This document shows positions 14,849 through 64,000 of a stretch of 64,000 nucleotides of DNA, one piece after another. The stretch comes from Candidatus Saccharimonadia bacterium. Lineage in GTDB: Bacteria; Patescibacteriota; Saccharimonadia; Saccharimonadales; JALRHH01. Position numbers and translations under genes: made by a program. Within the stretch, counting starts at the first letter, position 1, and each line of letters begins with the position of its first letter. The stretch covers positions 320,199-384,198 of the forward strand of contig JALRHH010000002.1 in NCBI GenBank assembly GCA_023253175.1. Reading direction: 5' to 3'. The notes beneath the pieces are model-generated. The model did no database searches. It was not told the DNA's origin and worked only from the letters and a program-made list of their open reading frames with translations.

Positions 14849-15889
14849 ATGGGCATACTGAGTGGGGTAAGTAACTTTTTTGGGCTTGATATCGGCACGT
14901 CTGCTGTCAGGCTTGTAGAACTGTCCGGTTCTGGCCAGGGAAAATCATTGGTGCGGTATGCATATGCACCGGTTGATTCTAGAATTGTATTAAGCGACTC
15001 AAAGGCAGATCGTCAGAAATTGGCGCAAGTAATATCAGAGCTCATTGCGAGCTCTAAAGTCTCGACTCGCAATGTTGCAGTTGGCATATCATCTAGTAGG
15101 GTGTTTACGACTATTGTTGATATGGATCGTTTGCCAGAATCTGAATTGGCTCGCACGATCAAATTACAAGCTGATTCGCTTATCCCAACACCTGTTGACA
15201 CGTCAAAACTAGAATGGGCACTCCTGGGTGACTCGCCAGTAGACAAGACAAAGTCAGAAGTTCTTATTTCGAGCGTTTCCAATGATGTCACTGAAGGTAT
15301 GTTGGATGTTCTAGAATCGATAGGTCTTAATGTAATTGCGTTTGAACCCGATAATCTCGCAATTGCTCGTTCGTTATTTGCACCGGATAACATGCTGCCA
15401 CAAATGGCGATTGACGTTGGTGCAAAGGCAACAGATTTAGTTTTGTCGATCAATGGCGCGCCTCGCTTGGCCCGTTCGATCCCAACTGGGACAGAAGCAA
15501 TTATTAAGTCTGCAGTGCAAAATCTCAGTATAGATGAGAAACAAGCCGAGCAGTTCGTATTCAAATTTGGCCTCTCAAAAGATAAGCTCGAAGGTCAGGT
15601 CCACCAAGCTATATTAGGAACTGTTGAGCTATTAGTGTCTGAGGTAGAAAAGTCGATCAAGTTTGTTGGGACACGTTATCCTGAGGCGAAGCTTGATCGA
15701 ATTATTGTATCCGGCGGAGCCTCGGCTTTACCTGAATTCCCACTTTATCTTGCGAATAAGACGGGGGCGAACATTGAGATTGGGAATGCCTGGCGTAATA
15801 TATCGTATCCAGCAAGTCGGCAGAATGAGTTACTGGCCGTATCAAATCACTTTGCAGTTGCTGCTGGTCTTGCAGAGAGGGTTGAATAG
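14849..15889 (+). CDS. pilM: type IV pilus assembly protein PilM (actin-like ATPase)
   Basis: FGLDIGTSAVRLVEL N-terminus, 346 aa, first gene of the pilMNO block. Confidence 0.9.
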   Translation: MGILSGVSNFFGLDIGTSAVRLVELSGSGQGKSLVRYAYAPVDSRIVLSDSKADRQKLAQVISELIASSKVSTRNVAVGISSSRVFTTIVDMDRLPESELARTIKLQADSLIPTPVDTSKLEWALLGDSPVDKTKSEVLISSVSNDVTEGMLDVLESIGLNVIAFEPDNLAIARSLFAPDNMLPQMAIDVGAKATDLVLSINGAPRLARSIPTGTEAIIKSAVQNLSIDEKQAEQFVFKFGLSKDKLEGQVHQAILGTVELLVSEVEKSIKFVGTRYPEAKLDRIIVSGGASALPEFPLYLANKTGANIEIGNAWRNISYPASRQNELLAVSNHFAVAAGLAERVE

Positions 15890-27727: not shown

Positions 27728-27763
27728 GTTATAATGCTGTAGGCCATCATGGCCTACAGATAG

Positions 27764-27838
27764 GTCTCTGTAGTTCAACGGATAGAATAACTCCGTCCTA
27801 AGGAGCAGATATAGGTTCGATTCCTATCGGGGATACCA
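27764..27838 (+). tRNA. tRNA-Arg (anticodon CCU)
   Basis: Hand-folded cloverleaf: GTCTCTG/TA/GTTC-AACGGATA-GAAT/.../loop GTCCTAA/T arm ATAGG-TTCGATT-CCTAT/CGGGGAT-A-CCA. The acceptor stem has three G-U pairs. Confidence 0.75.
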
Positions 27839-27876
27839 AAGTAAAAGCCGGTCAGTAAGACCGGCTTTTACTTTGG
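27836..27876 (+). terminator. 18-bp hairpin starting at the tRNA CCA end
   Basis: CCAAAGTAAAAGCCGGTC-agtaa-GACCGGCTTTTACTTTGG. Confidence 0.75.
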
Positions 27877-27914
27877 TAGCTCGCGTAGCGAGCCGAACCG
27901 TAAGGTTCGGTCGA

Positions 27915-27986
27915 CAAGGCCACGCACAGATGCTTGCATCGAGCATGGCCGCGGTCGTGCATTTTCCTATTGGTAATCCGAAAGTA
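27915..27986 (+). repeat. 47-nt hairpin module (copy A) plus a degenerate copy of the tRNA-Arg 3' end
   Basis: 27915-27961 matches the reverse complement of 31845-31891 at 34/47 positions with no gaps. The following TTCCTATTGGTAATCCGAAAGTA resembles the tRNA-Arg 3' end TTCCTATCGGGGATACCAAAGTA. Confidence 0.7.
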
Positions 27987-28010
27987 TCCCTATGCTACAC
28001 TAATATCCAA

Positions 28011-42320: not shown

Positions 42321-43004
42321 ATGTGGCAAACAACAGAAAATAAATTACACAAACAGTTCAAATTTGGTAGTTTTGATGAAGCGATAGATTTTATCAACAA
42401 GGTCGCCAAACTTGCGCGTAGCAAGAACCACCACCCGGTAATTATTAATATATACGATACTGTAGAGCTGGAGCTCAGTACACATGAGGCGGGGAATATC
42501 GTAACTGACAAAGACACTGATTTTGCCGAGGCGGTTGATGCAATACTGAATCCCCTAAAGCCAGAGCCAGCAGAAGCTATAGTGCCAACATCTGCGAAAT
42601 TCGTGAAGCTATTCGGTGACGGTGGTTCACGTGGTAATCCAGGGCCATCAGCGTCTGGGTTTGTTATTCTTGATGCCGACGATAATTTGATCTTGGAAAA
42701 GGGCGTATATCTTGGCATTACAACTAACAATCAGGCTGAATATCAGTCTCTCAAGCTCGGTCTTGAAGAGGCGCGTCGCATGGGCGTACAAGAGGTAGCG
42801 GTGCATATGGACAGCTTACTTGTCATTAATCAGATGAAGGGTATTTTTAAGGTCAAGAACCGTGATCTCTGGCCAATCTACGAATCTATCAAGGAACTCG
42901 TGACCCACTTTAAGAAAGTGACATTTACGCATGTCCCGCGTGAGCTCAACAAGCTTGCAGACGCCGAAGTCAACAAGGCTCTCGATCTCGAAGCTGGCAA
43001 ATAG
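42321..43004 (+). CDS. fusion protein: pterin-4a-carbinolamine dehydratase (PCD/DCoH) domain plus RNase HI domain
   Basis: N-terminus FKFGSFDEAIDFINKVAKLARSKNHHPVIINIYDTVELELSTHE. C-terminus FGDGGSRGNPGPSASG...NNQAEYQSL...HMDSLLVINQ...LNKLADAEVN (the DEDD residues). Confidence 0.8.
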   Translation: MWQTTENKLHKQFKFGSFDEAIDFINKVAKLARSKNHHPVIINIYDTVELELSTHEAGNIVTDKDTDFAEAVDAILNPLKPEPAEAIVPTSAKFVKLFGDGGSRGNPGPSASGFVILDADDNLILEKGVYLGITTNNQAEYQSLKLGLEEARRMGVQEVAVHMDSLLVINQMKGIFKVKNRDLWPIYESIKELVTHFKKVTFTHVPRELNKLADAEVNKALDLEAGK

Positions 43005-49653: not shown

Positions 49654-52557
49654 GTGGCAACATTTCTCTTTATATTAATCGTATTCCTCGTATTGGTGCT
49701 GATCGCGGCACCAATTATCTTCTTGCAGGTCCGTAAGGTATTCCGTGAACAAAAGAACTTCGAGCGTGGCCTTAAGATGGTACCAATGCTTATTCATTTG
49801 CCGCCAATCAGCGAAGATATTGACGGTGGTGGCCGTGATGCCCGTGACATAACAGAGGAAAACATTTCTAAAGCGCAGGTGATGTATAGCATTATCGCCA
49901 GCACGGTAACAAAGGGTCGTAAGAGTAAATTCTACGGCCAGCGTCATTTCGCATTTGAGATCGTTGGTATTAAAGGTTTTGTATACTACTACGCTGCAGT
50001 CCCTGTATCTCTTGTTGAAATCGTGAAGCAAGCAGTCGTTAGTGCCTATCCCTCTGCCAGGTTAGAAGAGGTTACGGAACACAATATCTTTAGCCCGGTA
50101 GGAAAGATCAGCGGCACAATTGGTGGTGAACTGACACTTAAGAAAGACTTCGCATATCCAATTGCAACCTATCAGGAGCTAAAGCGAGATGCGATGTCGT
50201 CACTTCTTAATTCATTGGCTAACCTAGAGAAAGAGGATGGGGTCGGTATCCAGATTTTGATGCGTCCCGCGCACGAGGGCTGGACTAAAACCTCGACAGG
50301 AATTTCCAGCAAGAAGCGAAAAGGCAAAGAGAGTAAGGGCGCTAAGGCTGCTGCTGGATGGTGGGTTAAGCAGCTTGCGACGGCAGCCGTAAAACCGCCT
50401 GAAGACAAGGGCGGCGGTGGGGGCGACAGCGGCCCGCAACTATCAAGCCTAGAGCAATCTACGCTTGATGCAATTGATGATAAGACAAGGCACGCCGGAT
50501 TCGAGACAGTAATCCGCGTCGTGGCATCATCTAATATCTCTCAGCGCGCTGATGCGATTCTACGTAACGTTGTTGCGTCATTTGCCTTATTTGATGCACC
50601 TGGCAAAAACGGTTTTAAATACACTCCAGCAAAAGACATGGAGCGTTTCGTAACGTCGTATATACTGCGCTTCTTCCCGCAAGAGAATAATAAGAGCATT
50701 CTTAATAGTGTAGAACTCGCCACCTTATTCCACTTCCCAGATCAGCGGAGTATTCCGACCTCACAGCTCGAGCGTCAGGGCAGTAAGCAAACAGATGGAC
50801 CTCGCAACATCTCTGATGATGGTCTCTTGCTCGGCTATAACGTCTTCCGCGGCGTTAAAAAGCCGATTCGTTTGTCGTTAGAGGATCGTCGCCGACATCT
50901 GTATGTTGTTGGACAGACCGGTGTAGGTAAATCTGTATTCCTAGAGAATATGGCGTTCCAGGACATGATCGAGGGTAGGGGCTTTGCGTTCGTTGATCCG
51001 CACGGTGATACCGCAGAGACACTGCTTTCTTTGGTACCGCGTGAACGAACCGAAGACGTTATTTACTTCAGCCCAGCTGACATGGAATACCCAATGGGGC
51101 TCAACTTGTTCGAGTTTGACGACAAGACGCAGCAGGACTTCTTGATTCAGGAAGCAATTAACATGCTCTATAAACTCTACGACCCGCAGCGCCAAGGTAT
51201 TATTGGCCCTCGGTATGAGCACTGGTTCCGCATGGCTGCTAAAACCGTTATGGCAAATCCAGAGGGTGGTACGTTTATTGATATTCCGAAGGTATTTACT
51301 GACAGTAAATACGCCAAAGACCTCTTGGCTCACCTCGATGATCAGGTTGTGCTCGATTTCTGGAACAAGGAAATGGCCCAGACGAGTGATTACCACAAGT
51401 CAGAGGTGCTTGGATGGTTCGTATCAAAATTTGGCGCCTTCATGGCGAACGATATGATGCGTAATATTATTGGCCAGAGCAAGAGCTCATTCAGCCTTCG
51501 TGATGTGATGGATAATAAGAAGATCCTACTTGTTAACCTGAGTAAGGGTAGAACGGGTGAGCTTAACTCTAAGCTGCTTGGTATGATATTTGTCATGAAG
51601 TTCCAGGCGGCTGCGATGAGCCGTGCGAATATCCCTGAGTCGGAGCGTCAAGACTTCTGTCTGTATGTTGATGAGTTCCAGAACTTCTCTACGGACTCGT
51701 TTGCGACAATCCTGTCAGAGGCTCGAAAATTCCGCTTGAACCTTATCGTGGCCAACCAGTTTACCACGCAGCTTACAGATGAAATTCGTGATGCGGTGTT
51801 TGGTAACGTTGGTTCAATGGCATCATTCCGTGTCGGTGCTGATGCTGATGCTGATGCGCTCAGTAAGAAGTTCCAGCCAATCTTTGATCGTGATGACATC
51901 CTACGTGTGCCTAACTTTAATACCATTTCTCAGATCCTAGTTGGTGGTATTCCAACGCAGCCGTTTAGTATGGCAACCTTGCCTCCGCTCGGTAATCCAA
52001 ATCCAAAGCTTGGGCAGGCGCTGCGTCAGCTTTCTGCGGTTAAGTATGGTCGACCTAAGGCTACTGTTGAATCAGAGATATTTGGTCGTCTGGCTACCAA
52101 GGAAGAGCCTAAGCCTGCCTTTGGTAGCGGTAATCCATTTGGTGGTGGTGCAGCGCCAAGGCCAGGTGTAGCGGCTCCTGGGGCGCCTCGACCAGCTGCG
52201 GGGCCTGCTCCTGCTGCCGGTGGATCGTCATTCCTTGACGAATGGCTTGCTAAGCGAAAGGCCGCTCCTGCTGCCGGTGCTCAGCCATCACTTCCAGTGC
52301 AACCGAAGCCCGTTCCGAGTACACCTTCTGCACCTGTAAATCCTGTTCCTCAGCCTACTTCAGCAGCGCCTGCTGATCAGAACGCAAACATATCAAGTGG
52401 CGCTATCGAACAGCAAGAGGTTACGACCATCGCCCATGAGTTAAAGCAGCAGCTCAAACAGCCTGCTCCTGCTTCTCAGGTTCAGGACGCATCAGCACAG
52501 CAGAAGGATAAGGACACCATTCAAATTGATCAGGATGGTACGCTCCGTCTTAGGTAA
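49654..52557 (+). CDS. VirD4/TraG/TraD-like type IV secretion coupling-protein-family ATPase
   Basis: N-terminal TM helix, Walker A VVGQTGVGKSVF, Walker B CLYVDEFQNF, ARKFRLNLIVANQFTTQL, and a long Pro/Ala-rich C-terminal tail. GTG start. Confidence 0.7.
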   Translation: MATFLFILIVFLVLVLIAAPIIFLQVRKVFREQKNFERGLKMVPMLIHLPPISEDIDGGGRDARDITEENISKAQVMYSIIASTVTKGRKSKFYGQRHFAFEIVGIKGFVYYYAAVPVSLVEIVKQAVVSAYPSARLEEVTEHNIFSPVGKISGTIGGELTLKKDFAYPIATYQELKRDAMSSLLNSLANLEKEDGVGIQILMRPAHEGWTKTSTGISSKKRKGKESKGAKAAAGWWVKQLATAAVKPPEDKGGGGGDSGPQLSSLEQSTLDAIDDKTRHAGFETVIRVVASSNISQRADAILRNVVASFALFDAPGKNGFKYTPAKDMERFVTSYILRFFPQENNKSILNSVELATLFHFPDQRSIPTSQLERQGSKQTDGPRNISDDGLLLGYNVFRGVKKPIRLSLEDRRRHLYVVGQTGVGKSVFLENMAFQDMIEGRGFAFVDPHGDTAETLLSLVPRERTEDVIYFSPADMEYPMGLNLFEFDDKTQQDFLIQEAINMLYKLYDPQRQGIIGPRYEHWFRMAAKTVMANPEGGTFIDIPKVFTDSKYAKDLLAHLDDQVVLDFWNKEMAQTSDYHKSEVLGWFVSKFGAFMANDMMRNIIGQSKSSFSLRDVMDNKKILLVNLSKGRTGELNSKLLGMIFVMKFQAAAMSRANIPESERQDFCLYVDEFQNFSTDSFATILSEARKFRLNLIVANQFTTQLTDEIRDAVFGNVGSMASFRVGADADADALSKKFQPIFDRDDILRVPNFNTISQILVGGIPTQPFSMATLPPLGNPNPKLGQALRQLSAVKYGRPKATVESEIFGRLATKEEPKPAFGSGNPFGGGAAPRPGVAAPGAPRPAAGPAPAAGGSSFLDEWLAKRKAAPAAGAQPSLPVQPKPVPSTPSAPVNPVPQPTSAAPADQNANISSGAIEQQEVTTIAHELKQQLKQPAPASQVQDASAQQKDKDTIQIDQDGTLRLR

Positions 52558-59753: not shown

Positions 59754-61258
<1,505 letters not shown>

Positions 61259-61417
61259 TAGGGAGAAAACTAGCAGTTAGCGGAGCAATCTCTAACGAGC
61301 TAGGTCGATCTTGGTAGATCATTGTCAGTACTGATGATTTACATTTCCAACATCGTTGGACGAGATTCCAGAACTGAAAACCGACCTGATGTTGATTGCA
61401 CTATAAAAGTTTTTAAC

Positions 61418-61448
61418 AAAAAACACCCGAGTAATCGGGTGTTTTTTA
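61418..61448 (+). terminator. rho-independent terminator directly after the 16S gene
   Basis: AAAAAACACCCGA-gtaa-TCGGGTGTTTTTT. Confidence 0.8.
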
Positions 61449-61479
61449 TTCTATTGGTATAAGTTATTATCTTAGTAGT

Positions 61480-62505
61480 ATGCAGCATGAATCTCAAAAC
61501 AAAAATAATATAATCGTCAATACTATCCCAGCAAATGTTAAAAAAAATGTTTTTGATGCATATATTGCATTGGGTATTGGGCTGGTCGTAGGAGCGCCTT
61601 TACTCGTCCTTGCCATTTTTATCGGCATTTCTCAAATAGGTGCTTCATCTTATGGCCCTCAGGTTGATATTCTTGCAAGCGTTTCGTTTGTAGCAACTGC
61701 CATAGTGTCTGCCTTCATATTTTACAGAAAAGCTCGTTCTGTAAGATACGCACCATGGATTTTTTTGCTCGCTATCAGCCATTCTGTAATTATTTCTTTT
61801 TTGGTGACAACATTTACTGCCTGGCTTACCGCTCCACTCCATGTAGATAATCTACTATTTTCGGCTATCCTCGGCGGAAAATTTATGGCGTCACTGATGC
61901 TTGCTGTTTTGATTTTTGTATTCGGCCTACTCATATATTGTCTGGCTTCTTTATCGAATAAAGCGCGCCGCGAATATACCTTGATCACTCTTGTAATATT
62001 AACTATTTTAGCTGGGGTAGGTTTTGTATACGCGGGTCACCCCTCACAAAGCTCAATATTTAATGAAGACAGTTTGAGACTCAGAGCAGATACTGCTACG
62101 GTTGAAAAAGCTCCCTTCCAGATATACGCTCCTTCTCATGACACAGGATATACGTTTAAGGGAATTACAACTCCTGCCGCAGTTAGTGAGCGTACTTATA
62201 TTGGCTTATCTTTCCAGAAGGGTAAGAGCAAACAAGCTAAAATCACTCTTGAGCAGCAGGATTTTAAGTCAGTGAGTGCGTTCGATCTACAACCTTTAGA
62301 GGATTATCGCGGTAACGTGATAGCAGGGCTGTATGGAGAACGCAGTGGAGAATCATCAGGCTATACGAAAATCGCTACAAGAAAAGGTGACACTTATGTT
62401 GCGATTATCCAGTATCCAAGTATTTCAGTTATTGTTGCTCAATCTATATTTGATTCTTTGGAACCTGTTGTGAACAACAGGCTTAATAACTCGAGTGGTC
62501 AATAG
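61480..62505 (+). CDS. polytopic membrane protein of unknown function
   Basis: 341 aa with about six N-terminal TM helices and a soluble C-terminal domain. It lies between the 16S and 23S genes. Confidence 0.6.
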   Translation: MQHESQNKNNIIVNTIPANVKKNVFDAYIALGIGLVVGAPLLVLAIFIGISQIGASSYGPQVDILASVSFVATAIVSAFIFYRKARSVRYAPWIFLLAISHSVIISFLVTTFTAWLTAPLHVDNLLFSAILGGKFMASLMLAVLIFVFGLLIYCLASLSNKARREYTLITLVILTILAGVGFVYAGHPSQSSIFNEDSLRLRADTATVEKAPFQIYAPSHDTGYTFKGITTPAAVSERTYIGLSFQKGKSKQAKITLEQQDFKSVSAFDLQPLEDYRGNVIAGLYGERSGESSGYTKIATRKGDTYVAIIQYPSISVIVAQSIFDSLEPVVNNRLNNSSGQ

Positions 62506-62549
62506 GTAGTCCTTATAAATAAAAACCACCGGTTACGGTGGAATAAGTT

Positions 62550-62626
62550 TGGTGGGCGATGGTGGACTCGAACCACCGACCTCTACATTATCAGTGTAGC
62601 GCTCTAACCAGCTGAGCTAAACGCCC
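62550..62626 (-). tRNA. tRNA-Ile (anticodon GAU)
   Basis: GGGCGTT/TA/GCTC..GAGC/CTACA-CTGATAA-TGTAG/GGTGG-TTCGAGT-CCACC/ATCGCCC-A-CCA. Confidence 0.9.
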
Positions 62627-62730
62627 TCATGATCCCGAAGGGAAAAGAGCAGGTCAGTTTAGTCGCTTGCGACTCGGCTTTGCCGACTGACCGATGAGAA
62701 AAACCGTAGGTTTGTCTCATATTTGTAATC

Positions 62731-62807
62731 TGGTGGAGCGTCGGGGACTCGAACCCCGGACCCCCTGCTTGCAAAGCAGGTGCTCTAGCCAACTGAGCTA
62801 ACGCCCC
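62731..62807 (-). tRNA. tRNA-Ala (anticodon UGC)
   Basis: GGGGCGT.. with the G3-U70 identity pair, anticodon loop TTTGCAA, T arm CGGGG-TTCGAGT-CCCCG, then ACGCTCC-A-CCA. Confidence 0.9.
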
Positions 62808-62918
62808 AGATTTACTCGGATAATTCTACACAAAAAACAGAGATAAAACAACCCCCTTCTTTGTATTATGATATAGTATGTTTACTGGTGGGTGTAATTG
62901 TAACTAAGGGGAATTATT

Positions 62919-63206
62919 ATGCCAGAAATATATGCAGCAGAACGAAGAGAGTCGATCCAACGAGAAGTGAGGGCTGCGGCAGTAAAAGAAGCTGCTCGAT
63001 TAGCCGTGCGATCTATGGATGCTGCCGCTCCAATACAGATGCGTGAGTTTATTGATCAGGTCGAGGATGATGTTATAGGGGTTTTTGGTCAGATGGGACA
63101 GCCTGAACTTAGTATAGACGCAGGCAGAGACGCTATGTTCTACATGCTGAACAAGGGTGAACTCTCATTTAATGGTGAGTTTATGCTTCAAAGAGTTGAT
63201 CAATAA
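62919..63206 (+). CDS. hypothetical protein
   Basis: 95-aa ORF behind AAGGGG. Confidence 0.5.
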   Translation: MPEIYAAERRESIQREVRAAAVKEAARLAVRSMDAAAPIQMREFIDQVEDDVIGVFGQMGQPELSIDAGRDAMFYMLNKGELSFNGEFMLQRVDQ

Positions 63207-63244
63207 CAGGGGTGATAGTATAGCAACTTTTACATCATTATATG

Positions 63245-63273
63245 CTTGACCACCTCTGTTTAAATTGGTATGA
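63245..63273 (+). promoter_or_regulatory. 23S rRNA promoter
   Basis: TTGACC (63245-63250), a 17-nt spacer, then TATGAT (63268-63273). Confidence 0.55.
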
Positions 63274-63561
63274 TTATTGGGCTATGTTGAGTTTAGGTCA
63301 CTGCTAGACGGTTACCGCCAAGCGAGAAACGTAAACTCAACCTCTACAGCAGCAAGTGAGTCAAAGATGGGTAATCTTTTTACTTGTGTAGAGATATGAG
63401 TTTGTAACTTAACAATTAGGTAGAAATATTTTGAGATTTAAGACAAACGGCATTAACGTTATTGGTAATACCAATAACTAGTCAATTTGTACTTTCAATT
63501 TGTCTCTAGTAATTATACTCGCACTTTGTGCTCGTATATTGACTAGAGCAATATCGTAAAA

Positions 63562-64000
63562 AGTTACTCAAGCGCACACAAGGGATGCCTTGACGCAATA
63601 TACCGATGAAGGACGTAGGGAGCTGCGATAAGCTTCGGGGAGCTGCTAACCAAGCTTTGAACCGAAGATTTCCGAATGGGGAAACCCGGCTAGAGTCATG
63701 TCTAGTCACTCTTATCTGAACACATAGGATAAGCAGCGGTAAGTGGGGGAACTGAAACATCTTAGTACCCCGAGGAAAAGAAAGTAAACAACGATTCCGG
63801 CAGTAGTGGCGAGCGACCCCGGATGAGCCCAAACCTTTTAAGTTTTTGCCTGCAAACGTATTTGCCAAATCTGTTACTTCGGTACCAGTGCAGCGATACG
63901 CGAGTGGCAAATAAGTTGGTAGACGAATATTTAAAAGGGGTTGTGACATGGTAAACAACCATGACGGAGTTCTGGATTTATCCAGATATCCGTTTTGGAA
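63562..64000 (+). rRNA. rrl: 23S ribosomal RNA, 5' part (continues beyond window)
   Basis: AAGCGCACACAAGGGATGCC...GATGAAGGACGT...GATTTCCGAATGGGGAAACCC...GGGGGAACTGAAACATCTTAGTACCC. Confidence 0.95.

Follow-up and report, generated by a model that had tools for sequence, protein, structure and literature searches.

A recurrent, polymorphic hairpin cassette in the duplicated 3' halves of tRNA genes in Saccharibacteria

Two tRNA loci with a common hairpin module

We analyzed a stretch of 64,000 nucleotides (nt) from the genome of a Candidatus Saccharimonadia bacterium (GenBank assembly GCA_023253175.1, contig JALRHH010000002.1; the whole stretch is referred to here as the window), in which intact tRNA genes are followed by a non-coding hairpin of 50–90 nt—termed cassette M—embedded in a degenerate copy of the 3' half of the tRNA. 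The tRNA-Arg(CCT) gene occupies positions 27764–27838 of the plus strand (ARAGORN; Rfam score of 53.6 bits), and a terminator-type hairpin (27834–27878, inverted repeat I1) starts from its ACCA end. A preliminary description of this DNA had recorded the latter structure at a length of 18 bp; the hairpin is indeed there, with perfect arms of 20 bp at 27834–27853 and 27859–27878. Two short hairpins follow on the same strand, both in agreement with that description: GCTCGC-GTA-GCGAGC (hp0, 27879–27893) and CCGAACC-GTAA-GGTTCGG (27893–27910). The second of these consists of copies of the 5' half of the T-arm, i.e., an inverted copy placed upstream (a, CCGAACC) and a direct copy (b) that ends at TTCG57. 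Cassette M itself spans 27910–27963 on the plus strand (covariance-model match at 27910–27959, 57.8 bits), includes a 47-nt module at 27915–27961, and is composed of a linker, the paired elements P1 (CGAC/GTCG), P2 (GGCCA/TGGCC), P2b (GC/GC) and P3 (GATGC/GCATC), and a short tail. The cassette is followed by c, the displaced old 3' end of tRNA-Arg (TTCCTATTGGTAATCCGAAAGTA, 27964–27986, plus strand), which comprises the 3' nucleotides of the T-loop, the 3' strands of the T-stem and the acceptor, a degenerate CCA and 5 nt of trailer. This second, degenerate 3' end had already been noticed; it is identical at 18 of 23 positions to the first copy of the repeat (D1, 27821–27843, plus strand), which runs from about nt 58 of the real tRNA-Arg into 5 nt of its trailer. 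The locus reads TAAGGTTCG / GTCGA-module / TTTTCCTATTGG... where the real tRNA-Arg has ATAGGTTCGATTCCTATCGG....

The tRNA-Asp(GTC) locus, located on the minus strand throughout, displays a similar set of parts. The intact gene (31999–32074; ARAGORN and Rfam) leads into a first terminator hairpin closed by CCA...TGG (31964–32001, inverted repeat I1), followed by a block at 31897–31948 that was delimited through repeats I3, I4, I5 and D3 together with local alignment. This block contains an inverted copy (a, 31934–31948) of the variable loop, the T-stem 5' strand and the T-loop, matching 32016–32030 at 15 of 15 positions, a tip hairpin (31912–31933) and a direct copy (b, 31897–31910; AAGGTCGCGGGGTC). 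Cassette M follows at 31845–31896 (covariance-model match at 31847–31896, 56.4 bits), with the linker GTCAT and the stems P1 (CATC/GATG), P2 (GGCCA/TGGCC) and P3 (GGAAT/ATTCC). Finally, c (31789–31843; alignment score of 38; repeats D2, D4 and I2) is the displaced old tRNA-Asp 3' end, AATCCCGTTCGGTCCGCT, together with the original terminator at 31789–31824; the duplicated 3' end is accompanied by a second terminator. Read in the tRNA sense, the order is AAAGGTCGCGGGGTC / GTCAT-module-C / TAATCCCGTTCGGTCCGCT, and the real tRNA-Asp reads AAGGTCGCGGGTTCAAATCCCGTTCGGTCCGCCA.

The comparison of the two modules given in the preliminary description was reproduced in full: 27915–27961 (plus strand) and 31845–31891 (minus strand) align without gaps and agree at 34 of 47 positions, all ten central positions differ with a 5-bp hairpin formed in both copies, and the outer GGCCA/TGGCC stem—P2 in the present nomenclature—is found in each. 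A core pattern shared by both modules has two matches in the window and none in 100 shuffled versions. Moreover, both modules sit inside a degenerate tRNA 3'-half copy, with a T-arm 5' copy ending in TTCG or GTC before them and a copy from about A58 onwards after them. A third, decayed element, absent from the preliminary description, was recognized by eye after tRNA-Thr(CGT) (tRNA at 32496–32571) at 32572–32695 of the plus strand, with a at 32588–32595, b at 32610–32616, a degenerate M at 32617–32683 (covariance-model match at 32617–32666, 14.8 bits, E value of 0.06) and c, starting ATCCCCC..., at 32684–32695. No terminator separates tRNA-Thr from this element.

Anatomy, distribution and polymorphism of the cassette family

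Each tRNA was aligned locally against its own downstream region, for which the 99th percentile of the null scores was 22.6. M loci show the same order of parts throughout, from the intact tRNA via a terminator hairpin, an inverted 3'-half copy, a tip hairpin and direct copy b to M and, last, direct copy c; b repeats the variable loop and the 5' strand of the T-stem up to a TTCG end, and c repeats the tRNA from about A58. In raw tRNA numbering, b ends at nt 55–59 and c begins at nt 55–60 (nt 73 in a tRNA-Ser of 90 nt). A CCA...TGG closure of the terminator hairpin is found at most of the related loci that were inspected, though not at every one. The inverted 3'-half copies that come after the terminator loop score 27–54, and they are nearly complete at tRNA-Asp of contig L032 (score of 54), tRNA-Met of L022 and tRNA-Asp of L031. 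The Arg loci have hp0 in place of the central part of the inverted copy; hp0 occupies the site held elsewhere by the inverted copy of the acceptor and T-stem 3' strand and shows compensatory changes among orthologous loci (AGTCTGC/GCAGACT in L029; CTCGC/GCGAG in L031 and L032). The direct-inverted-direct order, joined at palindromes, is clear at tRNA-Asp of the window, L031 and L032 as well as in L022, L026 and L028. All 15 copies compared have TTCG or GTCG to the left of M, including those whose real tRNA has TTCA, and the orientation is constant, although the T-loop is a conserved sequence anyway. Downstream half-copies were found at none of the 12 M-less tRNAs tested. The tRNA 3' half at M loci is triplicated in direct, inverted and direct orientation, and M lies in the T-loop of the distal direct copy.

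To describe the family in figures, at least 21 copies of M are present in Saccharibacteria contigs, at 10 tRNA identities, all of them 80–210 nt 3' of a tRNA gene and in the tRNA sense. Exact-pattern scans of the core across 185,579 genomes and the JGI metagenomes returned eight real matches, in two Saccharibacteria assemblies (L012 and L022) and six metagenome contigs, all of Saccharibacteria type; these lie 79–210 nt downstream of a tRNA in the same sense, and the tRNAs concerned are those for Asp, Met, Gln, Lys, Phe, Ser and Pro. The remaining ten genome matches are to coding sequence in unrelated phyla. Orthologous ndk-tRNA-Arg loci, collected via Ndk homologues, revealed copies that the strict core misses, so that this core under-represents the family. 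A looser motif, CA-(G NNNN)-NN-(NNNN C)-GAG with the bracketed arms obliged to pair, gave 15 copies over 281 kb of sequence, and 17 matches resulted from a covariance model run on both strands of 300 kb—in both cases with none away from a tRNA. The matches of the model, a kind of search that the preliminary description had proposed, include a sequence outside its training set (L042, 46.8 bits); between them, the scans, the motif and the model reveal many further copies in relatives. Additional variants were recognized by eye at tRNA-Asp of L031, tRNA-Arg of L046 and, in degenerate form, tRNA-Asp of L043. M follows three of the seven tRNAs in the window and three of four in one relative; ten contigs (L001–L010) belong to the same strain, are identical to the window and are hence uninformative.

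Known RNA families and viral sequences gave no counterpart. Rfam at its gathering thresholds gave no match at M, and no Rfam 15 covariance model overlaps the M hairpin core in the window at E values up to 10, the sole match that reaches into M (RF01721, 14.3 bits, E value of 3) being at chance level, and five other loci gave no Rfam match at E values up to 5. Three scans of viral contigs yielded no match to the strict core; the two commonest 17-mers had nine matches there, all in coding sequence with no tRNA nearby, and these were taken as chance matches. As a side observation, metagenome contigs tend to end within M elements or at tRNAs: L009 breaks off at GGTTCG in the b copy and L057 in the center of the M palindrome, and both ends of L012 carry partial tRNAs. 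M-element repeats probably fragment assemblies.

The relationship between M and its surroundings was informative as to which part is shared. Two contigs of one metagenome, with M at tRNA-Phe (L026) and tRNA-Pro (L028), have a common 68-nt block from AGTTCG to GGCAGTC, in which one small loop differs, and their flanks are unrelated and tRNA-specific. The Arg and Asp cassettes of the window have a GGCC core in common, and the orthologous tRNA-Arg locus of L029 (with an Ndk protein 97% identical) carries different cassettes in the same frame; the decayed Thr cassette of the window belongs to the same subfamily as the tRNA-Arg cassette of L042. Because the same M occurs in unrelated flanks, the tRNA-derived parts are local and M is the part that moves or is copied.

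Orthologous tRNA loci were also compared for occupied and empty sites, as the preliminary description had suggested, and empty-site polymorphism was found, including at tRNA-Arg. The tRNA-Asp of L030 is followed immediately by a terminator (AGAAAAAAGACTCAC...GTGAGTCTTTTTTT), to which the second Asp terminator of the window, behind the degenerate copy, corresponds. The degenerate copy and this second terminator are thus the gene's original end, and the 3' end in present use is of later origin. Empty sites were found at tRNA-Asp, tRNA-Arg and tRNA-Thr in L030, at tRNA-Val in the window, L030 and L031 (the site is occupied in L032), and at tRNA-Arg in L044. Within a single species, L046 equals L047 plus 172 nt, made up of an 81-nt M variant and a perfect 91-nt repeat that spans the T-loop, terminator, hp0 and a/b hairpin; the two contigs have 31 mismatches over 10,000 upstream positions (99.7% identical). 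Both alleles recur in independent assemblies, the short one six times and the long one two to three times: ten assemblies of this species yielded six short alleles, two long ones and one contig that ends inside M. The short allele is real, given that one such case is a k=31 assembly, which would be expected to break at the repeat and not to skip it. An earlier copy of the terminator arm and hp0, now decayed, is present in the flank of the short allele, and the tRNA-Arg locus of L029 holds two units and a remnant, as in tandem accretion; these older parts and stacked units point to repeated rounds at the same site. The direct repeats of the tRNA 3' segment range from perfect ones of 17, 23, 35 and 91 nt (among L042, L031, L027 and L046) down to barely recognizable ones, and several cassettes have lost the hairpin or most of their length through decay or deletion. 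M is a polymorphic, recurrent non-coding insertion, the target of which is the T-loop position of tRNA-gene DNA, and the essential tRNA stays intact by virtue of the duplicated 3' half.

Hairpin structure and the origin of the insertions

An anchored alignment of 14 cassettes provides 168 core pair cells, and standard pairs fill 94.6% of them. In 500 shuffles, none of which attains this value, the figure is 73.4%, and slid partners give 21–39%; the pairing was in part imposed by the search patterns, as detailed below. Ten of the 12 pairs change on both sides, with no one-sided changes noted, and the pair cells include 159 Watson-Crick pairs, no G-T pair and three A-C combinations. P3 occurs as nine different sequences and P2 as GGCCA/TGGCC, GAGCT/AGCTC, GAAG/CTTC or GCTG/CAGC, with constant internal-loop bases (C-N-C-R-C-A opposite G-A-G-N-A). 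The compensatory change between the two window modules had been taken as the mark of a selected structure, and the covariation holds in the 14-sequence alignment. An RNA under selection would not usually lack one-sided changes and G-U pairs altogether; this pattern fits either a DNA structure or complementary arms kept by template switching. Predicted RNA folds are stable at several loci (z-scores of -3 to -4.6), and in L022, L023 and L027 they contain a four-way junction closed by the inverted copy pairing with c. Further copies, covariation across 14 sequences and empty-site polymorphism, i.e., the observations on which the preliminary description had staked its proposal, are all present.

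A second small tail hairpin is found in some M copies only. The tail GTGCGC-TAA resembles the XerC arm of E. coli dif, a likeness too short and not general across copies, which we treated as chance. An origin of the tail as a decayed T-arm 5' copy is likely for unit 1 of L029 (18/23 by hand; the gapped local alignment covers tRNA nt 36–64), not in general.

Taken as a whole, M looks like a previously undescribed miniature mobile DNA element. To the reading of M as a non-autonomous cassette—mobile at the level of DNA, specific for the tRNA T-loop between nt 57 and 58, acting as a folded single strand and served by a trans-acting enzyme—we assign an even chance; that M acts as DNA, what kind of enzyme serves it and in which order the steps took place are inferred. 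An enzyme not encoded nearby would bind M as a hairpin of folded single-stranded DNA (ssDNA), reading the conserved internal-loop bases and leaving the stems free to covary, much as IS200/IS605 ends, REP sequences, integron attC sites and the CTX phage attachment site are recognized, and would then join M into the T-loop. The tRNA might be rescued through re-synthesis of its 3' half by strand displacement, with a snap-back at the terminator palindrome; alternatively, only insertions into already duplicated half-copies may be viable. The long direct repeats would afterwards permit precise loss. There is a real chance that the mechanism of M is itself new. It is more doubtful that M represents a new class of mobile DNA, in which a hairpin cassette of <100 nt, with a sister family at D-loops 5' of tRNA genes, would be inserted by a structure-specific enzyme into the loop of an extruded ssDNA arm of any tRNA, with cut-primed re-synthesis of the distal half giving rise to the triplication.

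Known systems provide partial parallels to such a cassette. Both IS200/IS605 and REP/RAYT comprise small non-coding hairpin elements that are read by structure as ssDNA, and insertion of the IS200/IS605 type occurs on the 3' side of a short, fixed target sequence, is orientation-specific and leaves no short duplication of the target. The TTCG or GTCG left flank of M and its constant orientation may recall IS200/IS605 derivatives, but the T-loop is conserved in any event; no Y1/HUH transposase gene lies in the annotated 17–64 kb of the window, M has one dominant hairpin instead of distinct left and right ends, and the long target duplication and inversion at M loci are foreign to that family. 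Unlike REP/RAYT elements, M is devoid of a conserved GT(A/G)G head, and its copies lie at tRNA 3' flanks only and are not scattered between genes. Integron attC sites and the Xer-used attP(+) hairpin of the CTX phage have in common with M a conserved structure with varying sequence, and in L022, L027 and tRNA-Asp of L032 the inverted copy allows a single strand to form a duplex that mimics the target site, from which the cassette branches off. In contrast to attC, the ends of M have neither the R'' (RYYYAAC) nor the R' (GTTRRRY) box, no integron integrase was found, the Xer gene is unlinked, and the target is the tRNA T-loop rather than attI or dif. Archaea, where tRNA introns occur at non-canonical positions and mobile elements leave tRNA fragments behind (PMC3293823), offer what we regard as an analogy and not a relative of M: an insert is located in a tRNA loop, similar inserts recur across tRNA genes and fragments lie beside a mobile element, whereas the copy interrupted by M is a truncated pseudo-half and the host, as a bacterium, has no known splicing endonuclease. 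An intron of the bulge-helix-bulge type was set aside as the interrupted copy is not a full tRNA. The use of c as a guide, be it the homing guide of a CRISPR-associated transposon or a TnpB guide RNA, was likewise rejected, given that c decays, has no nuclease gene nearby and is the old gene end.

Three other origins have to be weighed against a cassette moved by a structure-reading enzyme. Under classical site-specific integration, M would be the integrase-binding arm beside the crossover of a cargo-less attP mini-element, which would depend on a tyrosine integrase in trans and supply a replacement tRNA 3' end and terminator—comparable to the cis-mobilizable elements derived from integrative conjugative elements (ICEs). 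We regard this as unlikely even though much of the outline is that of tRNA-targeting integrative elements such as genomic islands, prophages and cargo-less derivatives of these: an intact tRNA, an insert and a displaced, decaying 3'-end copy with the old terminator behind it; occupied and empty sites; tandem accretion, as in L029; and direct repeats of the tRNA 3' end that begin inside the T-loop, as expected of attL/attR. The T-loop is reportedly one of the sublocations at which tRNA-targeting integrases act. The identity of c to the tRNA (93% over the first 7 nt, then 66%, then 40%) would also fit a recombination overlap region, yet such a gradient is expected from variable repeat lengths and the anchoring of c, and we give it little weight. 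The attL/attR-like footprint proposed in the preliminary description stands in outline, through the displaced 3' end and the empty sites, and the integrase picture behind it has three misfits. The M insert measures 100–260 bp, with no gene and no linked integrase, and the genome, metagenome and viral scans brought up no large parent element. In addition, one M family serves at least 10 tRNA identities and is not tied to one tRNA, near-identical M copies standing beside unrelated terminators, tips and tRNA-derived parts, and no one element could exchange its tRNA copy for another in a single step; that M is the moving part and the tRNA parts are local is the chief argument against a classical integrative element with a tRNA end of its own. 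Lastly, M splits the tRNA half-copy, dividing the T-arm 5' copy from the 3' remainder, which is the product of no attP/attB exchange, and the inverted half-copy that forms part of the insert is left unexplained.

An enzyme-free by-product of replication, also unlikely in our judgment, would have template switching at the terminator palindrome produce the triplications and M spread by gene conversion or microhomology copying, aided by the universal T-loop halves (GGTTCG and ANTCC) on either side of it; the stems would then be kept by quasi-palindrome correction and not by selection. Template switching at short palindromes does generate inverted triplications, or tandem inversion duplications (PMC4689423, PMC10766183), and the arms of inverted repeats are reported to homogenize and expand (PMC13100816). 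The direct-inverted-direct layout of M loci, joined at hairpins, one at the terminator loop and one at the tip, is that of such duplications, and the exclusively Watson-Crick pairing without one-sided changes, the conserved T-loop halves that always flank M and the frequent decay and deletions all agree with this origin. Tandem inversion duplications, however, are sporadic and extend over kilobases or more, whereas M loci have a unit of ~30–90 nt, at many tRNAs, with the same foreign cassette. Furthermore, the conservation of internal-loop bases while the stems vary, across genomes with widely differing tRNAs, points to recognition by a factor, no triplication devoid of an M-type sequence occurs among the 12 M-less tRNAs, and the complex layout at >20 loci, repeatedly at one locus, would call for many accidents in genomes of ~1 Mb. 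The tRNA-derived structured RNA that the preliminary description had offered as its second possibility is quite improbable: a terminator read-through transcript would contain M and its tRNA-like flanks, e.g., as a trailer RNA that mimics or pairs with tRNA. The strong covariation, the stable predicted folds with their four-way junctions, the constant tRNA sense, two G-T pairs in outer-helix or tail hairpins (CTTC/GGAG in L027 and GTAC/GTGC in L023) and loops of the CUUG type, which are known in RNA, are all in keeping with such a molecule. Nevertheless, M lies behind a strong terminator with no sigma-70-like promoter site found between the two, none of the 168 core pair cells holds a G-U pair, Rfam has no match, and the tRNA-like flank c decays. 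M is also missing from orthologous tRNAs of close relatives and within one species, and many copies are decayed or deleted, which makes M dispensable.

Several points weigh against the trans-mobilized DNA cassette that we prefer. Part of the covariation is ascertained: six sequences came from a regular expression that demanded P3 pairing, and eight from a scan pattern in which P2 is fixed. The stem left free by each search, P2 among the former and P3 among the latter, is therefore the informative one, and covariation persists in both sets. The missing G-U pairs could reflect mutational homogenization of the palindrome arms instead of selection, the polymorphisms could all be losses by repeat-mediated deletion and not gains, and the link between M and the triplication depends on a rescue step that is itself hypothetical. 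No excised or free form of M was seen, and BLAST of M against plasmids and phages gave no match. The annotated 17–64 kb of the window encodes no transposase, HUH nuclease (Y1 TnpA included) or extra recombinase. An RNA role via terminator read-through also keeps a small probability.

The loci bear on a group of organisms, Saccharibacteria and other ultra-small, host-dependent bacteria, in which mobile DNA is poorly known. Single-copy essential tRNA genes are occupied at M loci without being killed, in a way that differs from the usual integrase solution. An enzyme that reads T-loop DNA or the hairpin, should there be one, would find a conserved and universal target in every genome, and if M does represent a new class, the corresponding nuclease or recombinase would be specific for tRNA-gene DNA and work on any tRNA. 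On the practical side, the polymorphism within species makes M a ready strain marker, and the element is a likely cause of contig breaks at tRNAs.

Neighboring genes and mirror-image 5' elements

A Xer-type recombinase gene lies 0.6 kb upstream of the Arg element, as the preliminary description had pointed out. Its product is XerC/D/XerA-like and scores 139.7, below the integron-integrase cut-off of 265; the gene is syntenic in relatives, and tblastn with the window recombinase as the query found no homologue near other M copies. As a syntenic, housekeeping-like gene that is absent from the other loci, it was judged unrelated to the element. A rve-type (DDE) transposase gene is located at 15884–16870 of L046, ~5 kb from the polymorphic tRNA-Arg and between conserved genes, with no evident relation to M.

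Mirror-image elements were observed 5' of tRNA genes in relatives, at tRNA-Arg of L030 (10555–10655) and at tRNA-Thr of L030 (13670–13772), L031 (14570–14643) and L042 (13189–13268). Their order is a displaced direct copy of tRNA nt 1–18, ending in the D-loop, a small hairpin, an inverted copy of about nt 4–28 and the real tRNA; the direct copy is perfect in L042 (18/18), and the hairpin reads CGCAGC-TT-GCTGC in L031 and L042. The tRNA-Thr of the window represents the empty state for this 5' element, with the promoter directly upstream. Such D-loop elements suggest a general process acting on the arms of tRNA genes. A perfect 11-bp palindrome (CTGTAGGCCAT/ATGGCCTACAG) was also found at 27737–27759 of the window, 4 nt upstream of tRNA-Arg, the arms of which resemble nt 5–10 of tRNA-Arg in direct and inverted orientation; in the equivalent upstream hairpin of L046, one arm is the 5' acceptor strand of the tRNA (CTATGGGGG...CCCCCATAG).

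Some other features of the window deserve mention. An open reading frame (ORF) of 65 amino acids at 30940–31137 has a match, in the precomputed annotation, to the Pup family of prokaryotic ubiquitin-like proteins (PF05639) and is conserved in several relatives. Two larger proteins are unlinked to the elements: one of 967 amino acids (49654–52557) with DUF8128 and faint type IV secretion DNA-transfer ATPase matches, and one of 227 amino acids (42321–43004) with Pterin_4a, RNase_H and RVT_3 matches. Finally, the rRNA operon at 59755–64000 is unusual: between the 16S gene (59755–61257, plus strand) and the start of the 23S gene (63557, plus strand), it contains an ORF of 341 amino acids (61480–62505, plus strand) and, on the opposite strand, the tRNA-Ile/tRNA-Ala genes (62550–62807).

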